From Candidatus Komeilibacteria bacterium (GTDB lineage Bacteria > Patescibacteriota > Patescibacteriia > UBA1558), in the NCBI GenBank assembly GCA_048538235.1, contig JBLYPX010000001.1, positions 136,013-200,012 of the forward strand: a stretch of DNA of 64,000 bases, in the 5' to 3' direction. This document shows positions 6,748-9,488 of this stretch, one piece after another (position 1 is the stretch's first letter; each line of letters begins with the position of its first letter). The notes below the pieces were generated by a model. The model was not told the origin of the DNA. It was given only the letters and a program-made list of their open reading frames with translations, and did not search any database. Made by a program: the position numbers and the translations under genes.

Positions 6748-7670
6748 TTCAACGATTAACAAATATAGATATAATAAAATTTTTATCAATTATCATCATG
6801 GTAATTGATCATATGATTTTAACATCTATAGACCAGACAGCAAATGTAGCTCAAGTAGTTTTCTTTACTTTTGTTCCGCTTTGTCAGATGGGATTTTTAT
6901 TCTCTTCTGGTTATTTGATGGCCTATTCTTTTAATAAACAAAAGTTTAATAAATATATATACAGAATAGCATTGTTTGTTATCCTTTTTATTTTAATGAC
7001 AGTGCTATCTGGTGAAAAGTTTATAGCTTCTGGTTCAATACTTTTAAACTTTGCTATAAGCATAGCTATTAGTTTATTTTTCCTTTACAGAGATAAAGTT
7101 AAGGATTTGTTTAATTTTGTAATTATATTATTTGGCCTTAATATTTTATTTCAACTATTTACTATGAATGGAATAACAGTTCTTAATGATATTATGGCTA
7201 ATTATCCTTATCCAGTTAATTCTTTTTCATTGTATTTCTTTATGGGGGTAATTTTGTTCAGTTATAAAAATGAAGTTAGAACCTGGTTTAAGGGTGTTTT
7301 ACCAACACTCATAACAACTATATTATTAATAGGCTATCCCTTTATATATGCTTATGGCATATATATTAATAAATATAGTTTTTACCAACATCTACCATTG
7401 TTAATTCTAGCTAGCGCTTTTATTGGGTTATATTTTTTCTATAAATGGGAGAATGTTAAAATACCAAATATTATACATAAGCCAATAATAAAAATAGCAG
7501 ATGCACTATTATACATCTACGTTATTCATTACATTGCCTTATTTGGTTTTATAAAAGATTATAATCTACCGTGGTGGTTATTAATTATAACCGTTATTCT
7601 TATTATAATCTTATCTATTTACTTAAAGAAAGTAGTTTACTATATTAAAAAACTTTATCTAAAAGTTTAG
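6744..7670 (+). CDS. Polytopic integral membrane protein (TraX-like/unknown family)
   Basis: About 8-9 predicted TM helices. N-terminal 'FLSIIIMVIDH' resembles TraX-family proteins, but the family assignment is tentative. Confidence 0.35.
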   Translation: MIQRLTNIDIIKFLSIIIMVIDHMILTSIDQTANVAQVVFFTFVPLCQMGFLFSSGYLMAYSFNKQKFNKYIYRIALFVILFILMTVLSGEKFIASGSILLNFAISIAISLFFLYRDKVKDLFNFVIILFGLNILFQLFTMNGITVLNDIMANYPYPVNSFSLYFFMGVILFSYKNEVRTWFKGVLPTLITTILLIGYPFIYAYGIYINKYSFYQHLPLLILASAFIGLYFFYKWENVKIPNIIHKPIIKIADALLYIYVIHYIALFGFIKDYNLPWWLLIITVILIIILSIYLKKVVYYIKKLYLKV

Positions 7671-8814
7671 CAAATATTTTATTATTATCATCACCGTAAT
7701 TATTTTCAGAGAATTGTCTAGCGCTTACTGCTAGATTTTTTTTGTTTATCAAACAGTAATCTATACAATTAAGTAGAGCAGGACTGTCTATGTTCTGTAG
7801 CAATAGGTTTTTATTAAATGCATTAATAATCTCTGGGGTAGCACCAATATTTGTTCCAATAACTGGCAATGAAGCAGCAAGTGATTCAACGGTTGCTAAA
7901 CCAAAACCCTCATAGGCTAGGGTTGGTAGTATGAATATATCTGCTAATTGTAAATATTTAATTAAAGTAGTTTCTGGAAGTCTACCTAATAATATTACTT
8001 TACCACCTAGATTATTTTTTTTAATTAAGATATTTAAATTTTCTTTTAAATAACCATTGCCAATAATTAATAACTTAAAAGTTTTATGTTTTTTAATAAT
8101 GGCTGGAATAGATTTTATTAACCACTCAAGTCCCATTCTTGGAACCAATCTTCTAACAGTAATTGCAATAACATCTTTTGAGTTAACATTAAATTCTTCT
8201 CTTAGCTTATTTTTATCTTCTGCTGGTAAGAATTTATTCAGCTCAAGAATATATGGCACTCTTTGTATTTTACTACCGATCCTTGGGTATAGTTTTTTTA
8301 TAATATTGTCTGAAAAATTAGATAGGCTCCAGATTTGTTTAGCTTTTATTAATAATTTGTTTTCTATTCTTTTTGTATAGTAAACAAAGTATGGTTTAAA
8401 TATTCTACCTAATAGTTTATGCCTACTTTCAATATCCATACCTTGCCATTTTGTTTCTAAAGCAGTAGAAGCATGAAACATATATATGTAAGGAATATTC
8501 TTTTTTAAATTAAGAAAAGCTTTACCAATATATGGGTGGTGAATAATTACTAGGTCGTAATTATTATTGGCTATCTGTTTAGCTATTATTTGTTTGCCTT
8601 GTTTTAAGTCAGATAAACTTTTGCTGTTTGTGTTTATATAGCTAATTATTTGTATATTATTTACAAATTTTGTTTCTTCAACATCTGATCCGGTAACAAT
8701 GCTTACATTATATTTTAAAGATGCTAAAGATTTAGCTTGTTGCCAAGCTACTTTAGCAGATCCACCGATTCTGTCTGGGTATAATTCTTGAGTTAAAATT
8801 AGTATATTTCTCAT
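7645..8814 (-). CDS. Glycosyltransferase family 4 (GT4/GT-B)
   Basis: 'RIGGSAKVAWQ' near the N-terminus and the 'EGFGLATVESLAASLPVIGTNIGATPEII' E-x7-E region. Start set at ATG 8812-8814 (MRNILILT), which has an AGGA SD and avoids overlap with the downstream tRNA promoter region. Confidence 0.8.
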   Translation of the reverse strand: MRNILILTQELYPDRIGGSAKVAWQQAKSLASLKYNVSIVTGSDVEETKFVNNIQIISYINTNSKSLSDLKQGKQIIAKQIANNNYDLVIIHHPYIGKAFLNLKKNIPYIYMFHASTALETKWQGMDIESRHKLLGRIFKPYFVYYTKRIENKLLIKAKQIWSLSNFSDNIIKKLYPRIGSKIQRVPYILELNKFLPAEDKNKLREEFNVNSKDVIAITVRRLVPRMGLEWLIKSIPAIIKKHKTFKLLIIGNGYLKENLNILIKKNNLGGKVILLGRLPETTLIKYLQLADIFILPTLAYEGFGLATVESLAASLPVIGTNIGATPEIINAFNKNLLLQNIDSPALLNCIDYCLINKKNLAVSARQFSENNYGDDNNKIFAKLLDKVF

Positions 8815-8832
8815 AAATTGAATGTATCCTAT

Positions 8833-8860
8833 TTTTCCACATTTGACAAATGATAGATAG
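8833..8860 (+). promoter_or_regulatory. Candidate sigma-70 promoter for the tRNA cluster (TTGACA-16-TAATAT), followed by a perfect 14-bp palindrome AGGACAATTGTCCT (8886-8899)
   Basis: Consensus -35 hexamer, a 16-nt spacer and a near-consensus -10, located 65 nt upstream of the first tRNA. Confidence 0.45.
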
Positions 8861-8925
8861 CTGCTAATATACGTATTACCAATGGAGGACAATTGTCCTT
8901 CTTTTGTATTGTTCTTTTGCAAGCA

Positions 8926-9177
8926 GGGTGCGTAGCTCAGTTGGTAGAGCGCTTCATTGAAGTCTGAAAGGTTTTTTTCCGATCGAATATTCTGCAACGC
9001 TATTTAGACATGTGTGTGTAGCTCAACATCTTGACCAGAGCAGCAGTTTCCAAAAACTGTAGTACGCAGGGTAGAGGCCTGCCACATACGTTGGCTGAAA
9101 AGTTGAATAGTTCGTTTAGGAAGAAGGTATAACCTTAGGATGTGAAGTGGTCGCTGGTTCGAATCCGGTCGCACCCA
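8926..9177 (+). tRNA. Interrupted tRNA-Phe(GAA) with a 179-nt intervening sequence (8964-9142) at the junction of anticodon-loop position 38 and stem position 39
   Basis: The 5' half (8926-8963) folds as canonical positions 1-38: acceptor GGGTGCG, D-arm GCTC-AGTTGGTA-GAGC, anticodon stem CTTCA and loop TTGAAGT. The 3' half (9143-9177) supplies TGAAG, TGGTC, T-arm GCTGG-TTCGAAT-CCGGT, acceptor CGCACCC and discriminator A. The 5' exon ends in U and the insert ends in G. Confidence 0.6.
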
Positions 9178-9192
9178 CAATGTATTAAAAAG

Positions 9193-9269
9193 GCGAGTGT
9201 AGCTCAGCTGGGAGAGCGTCTAGTTAAGCTCAAACTAGGAGGTCGGTGGTTCGAGTCCGCTCACTCGCT
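9193..9269 (+). tRNA. tRNA-like gene with an atypical extended anticodon arm (21 nt instead of 17); identity unresolved
   Basis: Perfect acceptor GCGAGTG/CACTCGC, D-arm GCTC/GAGC and T-arm GGTGG-TTCGAGT-CCGCT. The anticodon region TCTAGTT-AAGCTCA-AACTAGG folds as a 7-bp stem with a 7-nt loop lacking U33, or as a 5-bp stem with an 11-nt loop. Confidence 0.45.
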
Positions 9270-9289
9270 CAATGTTTGTTCTATTAACA

Positions 9290-9366: not shown

Positions 9367-9440
9367 CGGGAGATGGAGCAGCTTGGTAGCTCGCTGGGCT
9401 CATAACCCAGAGGTCGTTGGTTCAAATCCAACTCTCCCTA
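9367..9440 (+). tRNA. tRNA-Met(CAT), initiator-type
   Basis: Anticodon arm CTGGG-CTCATAA-CCCAG, giving three G-C pairs at positions 29-31:39-41. Unpaired 1:72 (C1/U72), A73. T-arm GTTGG-TTCAAAT-CCAAC. Confidence 0.7.
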
Positions 9441-9488
9441 CAATGAAGAGATGGTGTTAAACACTATCTCTTTTCATTTTAAATCTAA

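Follow-up and report, generated by a model that had tools for sequence, protein, structure and literature searches.

A conserved RNA module bearing a tRNA-like cloverleaf interrupts the anticodon loop of tRNA-Phe, on its 3' side, in Komeilibacteria-like bacteria

The bacterial tRNA introns characterised so far are, to our knowledge, all self-splicing and belong to group I or, rarely, to group II. Group I tRNA introns are common in uncultured phyla, and a preprint that covers group I only reported them as frequent in tRNA anticodon loops in genomes of unnamed phyla (10.1101/2020.01.27.920355). The insert described in this work, which splits a tRNA-Phe gene of a Candidatus Komeilibacteria bacterium, resembles these introns in being a structured and selected RNA of about 200 nt within a bacterial tRNA anticodon loop that, in the copy analysed here, follows a U and ends in G. 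It differs from them in having no detectable catalytic core, in its nested fold, in end bases that are not conserved, in the cloverleaf that it contains, and in its location at 36-39 instead of at positions with a G.U P1 pair. Archaeal tRNA introns may carry functional RNAs, as is the case of the box C/D guide RNA in the tRNA-Trp intron, and in split and tri-split tRNAs a long helix holds the halves together. The insert lies near the 37/38 position of archaeal introns, would share with them a function of its own, and extends the anticodon stem by a long helix as in split tRNAs; in contrast, the bulge-helix-bulge that marks archaeal introns for EndA/RtcB is absent from it, and its host is a bacterium. 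Archaeal intron and split-tRNA features are summarised in PMC10714607, where many insertions in rRNA genes of CPR bacteria are also mentioned. With bacterial and CPR rRNA intervening sequences the insert shares an extended helix within a stable RNA gene, variability among lineages and the absence of an ORF, whereas one of its forms (type B, below) is branched and not a simple helix. Inserts in rRNA are removed by RNase III without ligation; in a tRNA, an unligated cut at 38/39, where colicin D cuts, leaves a nicked anticodon loop and inactivates the molecule.

Two further groups of RNAs are comparable in architecture. As in tmRNA and YrlA, a domain of tRNA shape is joined to a long helix and to additional structure, the tRNA part being conserved and its anticodon function dispensable; unlike in these RNAs, the ends lie in the outer acceptor stem, a second cloverleaf is placed at the tip, and there is no match at threshold. 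Processing signals with the shape of a tRNA also occur within longer transcripts, such as mascRNA at the 3' end of MALAT1 and the tRNA punctuation of mitochondria. By analogy, the embedded cloverleaf might attract RNase P and RNase Z to cut the longer RNA, although those signals are not situated within another tRNA and the cuts made at them are not religated.

The window, that is, the whole stretch of 64,000 nt that was analysed (assembly GCA_048538235.1, contig JBLYPX010000001.1, positions 136,013 to 200,012), has a G+C content of 33%, and Pfam scans of 44 of its ORFs yielded ordinary CPR chromosomal genes; DprA is encoded in the window. Proteins encoded beside the split gene were 100% identical to those of a Candidatus Komeilibacteria MAG (Patescibacteria/CPR) with a contig of 860 kb. 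On direct reading, the two halves of a tRNA-Phe(GAA) are found at 8926-8963 and 9143-9177, with 179 nt (8964-9142) between them. The features of the locus are given below in window coordinates; L008 is a syntenic locus from a related assembly.

8843-8870, + strand: sigma-70-type promoter of the tRNA operon (TTGACA, 16 nt, TG-TAATAT)
8884-8911, + strand: leader hairpin GGAGGACAATTGTCCTTC (8884-8901) plus a U-rich tract, terminator-like, a few bases past the predicted transcription start
8926-8963, + strand: 5' half of the outer tRNA-Phe, GGGTGCG TA GCTC AGTTGGTA GAGC G CTTCA TTGAAGT (acceptor strand 8926-8932; D arm 8935-8950; 5' strand of the anticodon stem 8952-8956; complete loop UUGAAGU 8957-8963, with the anticodon GAA at 8959-8961)
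8964-9011, + strand: insert, 5' strand of a long imperfect stalk helix that extends the anticodon stem (from single-sequence folds)
9012-9090, + strand: insert, embedded tRNA-like cloverleaf (from the Rfam tRNA model and the consensus fold), with stems 9012-9018/9083-9089, 9021-9024/9038-9041, 9043-9049/9054-9060 and 9066-9070/9078-9082
9091-9142, + strand: insert, stalk 3' strand, which at 90% identity to L008 is better conserved than any other part of the insert
9143-9177, + strand: 3' half of the outer tRNA-Phe, TGAAG TGGTC GCTGG TTCGAAT CCGGT CGCACCC A (3' strand of the anticodon stem 9143-9147; variable loop 9148-9152; T arm 9153-9169; acceptor 3' strand 9170-9176; discriminator A 9177; CCA not encoded)
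9194-9270, + strand: odd tRNA-like gene with an 11-nt anticodon loop
9290-9362, + strand: tRNA-Thr(GGU)
9367-9441, + strand: initiator-type tRNA-Met
9445-9473, + strand: intrinsic terminator at the end of the tRNA transcription unit

Pairing across the insert was complete in the acceptor stem (7/7) and in the anticodon stem (5/5). That a tRNA-Phe(GAA) gene is split here by 179 nt had been proposed in a first-pass annotation of the sequence and was borne out by the direct reading, by the syntenic orthologues described below, and by ARAGORN run with intron search, which reported a tRNA-Phe(GAA) at 8926-9178 with an intron of 179 nt placed at 37/38. At default settings ARAGORN did not report the split gene, nor did Rfam at gathering threshold. 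When 8964-9142 was removed in silico, ARAGORN called a tRNA-Phe; all the standard invariant bases were present in the spliced window sequence, and the window copy has the anticodon GAA, a purine at 37 and discriminator A73, all three. The insert begins with CUGAA, and the same annotation was correct for the window in giving a U at the end of the 5' exon (8963, T) and a G at the end of the insert (9142). The exon boundary is ambiguous by one base, since both 37/38 and 38/39 give an insert of 179 nt and a 7-base loop (UUGAAGG and UUGAAGU, respectively). The uninterrupted tRNA-Phe of a metagenome contig (L007) has a loop identical to the latter, UUGAAGU, and an anticodon arm near-identical to that of the window, which makes 38/39 the natural boundary for the window copy. 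The 38/39 position of the first-pass annotation is thus backed by the L007 loop, whereas ARAGORN prefers 37/38 within the same one-base ambiguity.

With the neighbouring glycosyltransferase and YibE/F genes as anchors, syntenic loci were retrieved from independent assemblies. The split gene was found at this syntenic position in seven related Patescibacteria assemblies. It was complete in L002 (GCA_016784445.1; = L011-13), L008 (GCA_041294325.1; = L009, L010) and L014 (= L015-17); only the 5' part was present in L018 and in L019/L020, only the 3' part in L005, and L004 carried a more irregular form whose outer gene was not called by ARAGORN. L005 and L019 were treated as one composite gene, which they probably are, since both come from sample ERZ27315921. 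In L003 a plain tRNA-Gly occupied the place of the split gene, and L021 and L001 were not syntenic. The search of genome contigs with the YibE/F neighbour returned one locus, the non-syntenic L001, and the search of metagenome contigs returned L006 and L007 only. Between the glycosyltransferase and ABC-transporter genes, the lineages differed in their tRNA set and in whether YibE/F, a CoA-binding gene or a small ORF was present; the small ORFs beside the gene in L002 and L004 belonged to no Pfam family and displayed no similarity to each other.

The split gene is the first gene of the operon. The same promoter sequence was found upstream of it in L002, L008, L014, L018 and L019, and it precedes the plain tRNA-Gly in L003. 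Equivalents of the leader hairpin, with compensatory changes, were present in the same five loci with the split gene, and the hairpin was missing in L003, which is without the split gene.

The outer cloverleaf was 96.6% paired in an alignment of sequences spliced in silico that included two control tRNA-Phe genes (uninterrupted or group-I), and 12 of its 21 pairs had changed on both sides. None of 500 shuffles matched this pairing, and in slid registers the paired fraction dropped to 24-50%. Among the split genes alone, double-sided changes were found in the acceptor stem (5:68, G-C to A-U, in L019/L005), in the anticodon stem (28:42, U-A to C-G, in L008) and in the T stem (50:64, C-G to U-A), and the tertiary 15:48 pair covaried, being G-C in most copies and A-U in L014. 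Bases 1-25 were identical in the window and in L002, and were better conserved than the neighbouring initiator tRNA. This covariation, together with the identity over bases 1-25, indicated that the outer tRNA is selected as one RNA and that the split gene is therefore not a decaying pseudogene. The tRNA halves are kept by purifying selection with compensatory changes.

The insert of the window can be aligned with that of L008, and we refer to this common form as type A. The two inserts were 84% identical overall, as compared to 42-62% for the four-fold degenerate sites of the flanking genes. The consensus fold of both sequences contained 76 predicted pairs, none of them broken and four with compensatory changes. 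In this fold the stalk consists of seven short helices (8962-9007 with 9095-9141), with one double-sided change (G-C to A-U) and no broken pair, which together make an imperfect helix of roughly 35 bp running from the outer anticodon stem to the inner 'acceptor' stem; the predicted fold of the transcript thus shows two tRNA-shaped domains, tail to head. The many G.U pairs on the + strand indicated that the structure is formed by the RNA in sense orientation.

The cloverleaf inside the insert had been overlooked in the first-pass annotation. Over 9012-9090 it scored 35.5 bits against the Rfam tRNA model RF00005 (gathering score 29; E=6e-6). Its D-like loop has 13 nt and is without GG, its 'anticodon' loop has 8 nt (UUCCAAAA), and its T-like loop, GUAGAGG, is non-canonical. 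In L008 all four stems were kept, the acceptor-like one with a compensatory change from G-C to A-U, and the 'anticodon' loop had slid from UUCCAAAA in the window to UUUUCCAA; given this sliding, the inner cloverleaf is tRNA-like in shape and not a decoder. The insert is a structured RNA under purifying selection.

At least three insert types were distinguished, with just 2-4 sequences per insert type; they cannot be aligned with one another, and each consists of a helix or a multi-helix stalk with a tRNA-like cloverleaf. Type B, common to L002, L014, L018 and L019/L005 and unalignable with type A, has a branched and not rod-like fold with 63 pairs, seven of them compensatory. Its cloverleaf begins ...UG UA GCUU..., and the stems were 100% paired in three sequences, with five compensatory pairs; the acceptor-like stem appeared as CUUUG/CAAAG, CUCUG/CAGAG and CUUAG/CUAAG. 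In this type base 32 covaried with the last base of the insert (C-G to U-A). Type C, the insert of L004, is a helix of about 40 bp (z = -4.8) capped by a near-canonical tRNA, which scored 50.1 bits against RF00005 and has canonical D and T loops; its anticodon loop has 11 nt owing to a 4-nt tandem duplication (CU-AAUA-AAUA-G). The Rfam tRNA model did not detect the inner elements of L008 (type A) or of type B. The whole elements were more stable than shuffles (z = -3.4, -3.2 and -4.8).

A shared origin of the three types was considered and rejected, the pairwise similarity not being significant. At default filters, a covariance model built on the type B cloverleaf retrieved type B only; with the filters off, its best weak full-length matches, at 5-7 bits, were a real tRNA and the inner elements of types A and C, which suggests a common cloverleaf shape only. 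The distribution of insert types was discordant with the flanking-gene phylogeny. Although L002 and L008 are the most closely related, with 96-99% identity between their ABC proteins, they carry types B and A, respectively, and the window, whose ABC proteins were 89-91% identical to those of L002 and L008, shares type A with L008. As judged from these sequence comparisons, the discordance is best read as an exchange of cassettes by recombination in a hot spot, which would not necessarily imply intron homing.

The anticodon and the junctions behaved differently from the rest of the element. U33-G34-A35-A36 was invariant in five lineages, which cover all three insert types, whereas GAA was lost in two of the seven lineages, L008 (UUAUAUG) and L018 (GUG-CUUA), where the tRNA body and the module were still kept. 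Base 37, read from the 5' half, was G, U or A among the orthologues, and a purine at 37 cannot be obtained in all types with one and the same splice position, as type A needs 37/38 or 38/39 and type B 36/37. The discriminator was A, A, A, G and U among orthologues, an unusual pattern for a tRNA-Phe. When the window was compared with L008, the junctions were among the least conserved parts (67% identity); the 5' half, the stalk strands and the cloverleaf were 81-97% identical and the outer 3' half 76%. An anticodon taken from the 3' exon, with splicing after U33 as in L006, was rejected on inspection, as it would read GGA, CCA, UCA and CUA across orthologues. A further tRNA-Phe gene is probably present at least in the genomes of L008, L018 and L003, because either GAA or the whole gene is missing there, and the split copy may be redundant in every lineage.

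Mobile DNA elements (MITE or insertion sequence) and catalogued RNA families were also considered. No further copies of the insert were found in the window, in viral contigs, or in phage or plasmid collections; it is a single copy in the window, has no ORF and is without target duplication. The flanking 6-nt repeat TGAAGT arises from the loop repeating the stem strand and is not a target duplication, since removal of one copy would leave no anticodon loop. ARAGORN found no tmRNA; matches to YrlA reached 14.7-23.5 bits against a gathering score of 69, and were made up of the T arm of one tRNA and the D arm of the next. No Rfam family other than tRNA fitted any version of the insert at a threshold of E<=10, and we found neither non-group-I tRNA introns nor tRNA-like RNAs in CPR bacteria described in the literature that was searched. 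What the tRNA-Phe gene carries at the 3' edge of its anticodon loop is a selected RNA module, unlike the catalogued introns and RNA families.

The first-pass annotation had offered three identities for the insert, namely a degenerate or minimal self-splicing group I intron, an archaeal-type tRNA intron, or an insertion that inactivated the gene. Its reading of an interruption at the 3' edge of the anticodon loop stands, and all three identities are unsupported in the form in which they were proposed. A tRNA-Phe pseudogene that an insertion or a rearrangement of the tRNA cluster had broken, and that was drifting neutrally, would fit a locus known here as a hot spot of rearrangement, its tRNA set being different in each lineage, and it would fit the loss of the anticodon in two of them; this explanation is largely refuted and very improbable, given that exons and insert are conserved far above the four-fold sites, that 4 + 7 + 12 compensatory pairs contrast with 0 broken ones, and that a dedicated conserved promoter precedes a gene found in seven independent assemblies. 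Regarding self-splicing, RF00028 (group I) gave no match, either at gathering threshold or at E<=10, in window positions 8850-9250, L002, L004/L005, L008 or L010/L017/L018/L019. The group I intron in the tRNA-Phe of L006 (spliced CU/...G/GAAGA), used as positive control, scored 80.8 bits, so a group I core would not have escaped the model. The model for group II, RF00029, found no match either, and the CUGAA start and the 179 nt of the insert compare with domains V/VI, a 5' GUGYG, a 3' AY and a size above about 400 nt in that class. A likeness of 'GGUGUAGAG' in L002 to the group I core of L006 was no better than that of shuffled controls. The U before the insert and the G ending it are shared by the window, L002, L004 and L005, but they are not conserved, the last base of the insert being A in L014 and C in L008 and, under the same alignment, the base before the insert being G in L008, and on inspection no conserved G.U P1 or internal guide pairing could be drawn. 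These results argue against a degenerate or minimal group I intron. A self-splicing intron from a ribozyme class that is new or extremely reduced, with the conserved module as its catalytic fold and the cloverleaf as part of its architecture, would be in line with the strong purifying selection on sequence and structure, loops included, with the U and G ends of those four copies, and with the frequency of group I introns in tRNA anticodon loops of unnamed phyla (10.1101/2020.01.27.920355). We nevertheless regard it as unlikely, as only about 100 nt are left outside the cloverleaf, the three types have no detectable sequence or core in common, and the consensus fold is fully nested, without the topology of a P3/P7 pseudoknot.

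Processing of the archaeal or eukaryal kind, with an endonuclease acting at a bulge-helix-bulge and sealing by RtcB, could be invoked from the position of the insert near the canonical 37/38 site and from the covariation of base 32 with the last insert base in type B, which recalls the anticodon-intron pair of eukaryotic pre-tRNAs. A scripted scan for a 3-4-3 bulge-helix-bulge in five sequences, noisy in AT/GU-rich sequence, gave scattered chance matches, none of them at the junctions giving a 7-nt loop (0/5 sequences), and the folds contained one-strand bulges only, which differed by type. No splicing endonuclease or RtcB-type ligase was found by Pfam among 44 ORFs of the window (64 of about 860 kb), and we know of no bulge-helix-bulge splicing endonuclease in bacteria. 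An archaeal-type intron, the second of the proposed identities, is scarcely plausible on these grounds. The main rival to our preferred reading is an unspliced non-coding RNA scaffolded on a tRNA, in which the anticodon loop would act as a hinge for the module; the tRNA body would supply folding, end processing, stability or, through the exposed GAA, aminoacylation by PheRS, and the module would do the work. We consider this a possibility to be taken seriously. It agrees with a conserved body and module joined by labile junctions (67%), with the loss of GAA in L008 and L018 without decay elsewhere, with the variable discriminator, and with the conserved U37 of type B when the loop is read from the 5' half; besides, it needs no unknown enzymes and is in keeping with known splicing signals not having been found. 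On the other hand, it leaves unexplained the invariance of UGAA in five lineages with three unrelated insert types at saturating divergence, which structure alone fails to explain because the pairing partners of UGAA differ between types. The window exons, moreover, form a flawless tRNA-Phe with the same loop as a real uninterrupted gene, and the tRNA-like Rfam families, tmRNA and YrlA, gave no match at threshold.

Our preferred reading, to which we assign a probability of roughly 0.4 from the sequence comparisons, is that of a module lodged in the body of a tRNA-Phe and presumably excised by a route other than self-splicing. Protein enzymes would cut the module out, the outer tRNA body and the inner cloverleaf serving as handles for nucleases of the RNase P/RNase Z type, and an RNA ligase would rejoin the halves, so that the window copy would give a normal tRNA-Phe with the loop UUGAAGU. 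The released module may have a function of its own, which would explain why module and body persist in the two lineages without GAA. The preferred reading accounts jointly for the conserved GAA, for the conserved module and for the survival of body and module after the loss of GAA. It would require extra trimming, since cuts by RNase P and RNase Z at the inner cloverleaf miss the exon borders. Against it stand the fact that no pair of bacterial enzymes is known to remove an insert other than a group I intron from a tRNA and to reseal the tRNA, none being found in the 64 kb, the absence of a common splice position for purine 37, the variable discriminator, the loss of GAA in two of seven lineages, the missing gene in L003, and the inner elements of L008 and type B that escape the Rfam tRNA model. 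We put forward only tentatively, as a doubtful proposal, that these genes represent an undescribed class of tRNA inserts in Komeilibacteria-like CPR bacteria, non-coding, of about 160-180 nt, composed of a stalk and a cloverleaf and existing in several exchangeable types, which would be excised and the tRNA resealed by a new route, either nucleases guided by the nested fold plus a ligase, or a small ribozyme.

Genomes of this clade may be wrongly scored as being without tRNA-Phe, given that ARAGORN at default and Rfam miss the split gene. CPR bacteria make up a huge and poorly understood share of bacterial diversity, and a conserved insert in a bacterial tRNA that is neither group I nor group II would mean a protein-dependent splicing route, a new small ribozyme or a new family of tRNA-scaffolded RNAs in the CPR. 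The architecture of a 'tRNA inside a tRNA' bears on the origin of split and intron-containing tRNA genes.

The second gene of the tRNA operon displayed a well-formed tRNA body with acceptor GCGAGNG and an anticodon loop of 11 nt. The features considered here, in the window and at other loci (L), are the following:

Window 7645-8817: glycosyltransferase, left border of the region discussed below
Window 8843-8870: promoter of the tRNA operon
Window 8884-8911: terminator-like hairpin with U tract
Window 9194-9270: tRNA-like operon gene 2 (same-locus counterparts at L002 5779-5856, L004 476-546 and L005 104-176)
Window 11040 onwards: ABC transporter, right border of the region (counterparts of the region in L002, L003, L008 and L014)
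L002 5318-5512: 64-aa ORF (same ORF in L012/L013, 2679-2873, minus strand)
L004 301-377: inner tRNA of the type C insert
L005 178-318: spacer of ~140 nt between tRNA-Thr and tRNA-Pro
L006 4372-4667, minus strand, metagenome contig Ga0210057_1000034: tRNA-Phe(GAA) with group I intron (RF00028)

The loop of operon gene 2 reads UUAAGCUCAAA in the window vs. UUGAUUUUGGA in the related locus L002; no anticodon triplet is common to both, and the two anticodon stems are separated by compensatory changes. ARAGORN labeled the gene either Ser(gct) or "SeC(tca) with a 4-nt intron." In L004, the locus with the type C insert, the corresponding gene presented a 7-nt loop (UUGCUAG), and that in L005, where only the 3' part of the split gene is present, is an ordinary tRNA-Thr(GGU). 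With operon gene 2, the locus of the split tRNA-Phe holds a second tRNA-like gene, one whose anticodon loop is hypervariable. In the inner tRNA of the type C insert, the D and T loops are canonical, and the anticodon loop CU-AAUA-AAUA-G is the original CUAAUAG with a 4-nt tandem duplication. Neither an ORF nor an Rfam hit was found in the L005 spacer, which may encode a further small RNA.

The tRNA-Phe(GAA) of L006, which served as a positive control, carries a bona fide group I intron of 223 nt (RF00028, 80.8 bits) at positions 33/34. Since this intron starts with GAAAU, the gene before splicing seems to contain an intact Phe anticodon loop. Another metagenome contig, L007 (Ga0307992_1030648, 2.4 kb), packs 11 tRNA genes closely together, one of them assigned the 4-base anticodon acga; at ~2060-2110, immediately 5' of tRNA-Asn, there is also an apparent orphan 5' half of a tRNA.

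The terminator-like leader hairpin with its U tract is located only a few bases downstream of the point where transcription of the tRNA operon is predicted to start. All split-gene loci keep this hairpin, with compensatory changes, and it is missing in L003, the related locus without the split gene. It could act as an attenuator or 5' stabilizer. In the L002 lineage the 64-aa ORF, which matched no Pfam family, separates the hairpin from the split tRNA gene. Immediately 5' of the split gene, L004 likewise carries a small ORF; the two proteins share no similarity.

Between the glycosyltransferase and the ABC transporter, the set of tRNA genes differs from lineage to lineage, as do the accessory genes (YibE/F, a CoA-binding protein, the 64-aa ORF), and the insert type of the split gene is at odds with the phylogeny of the proteins on either side. 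This region is a recombination hot spot.
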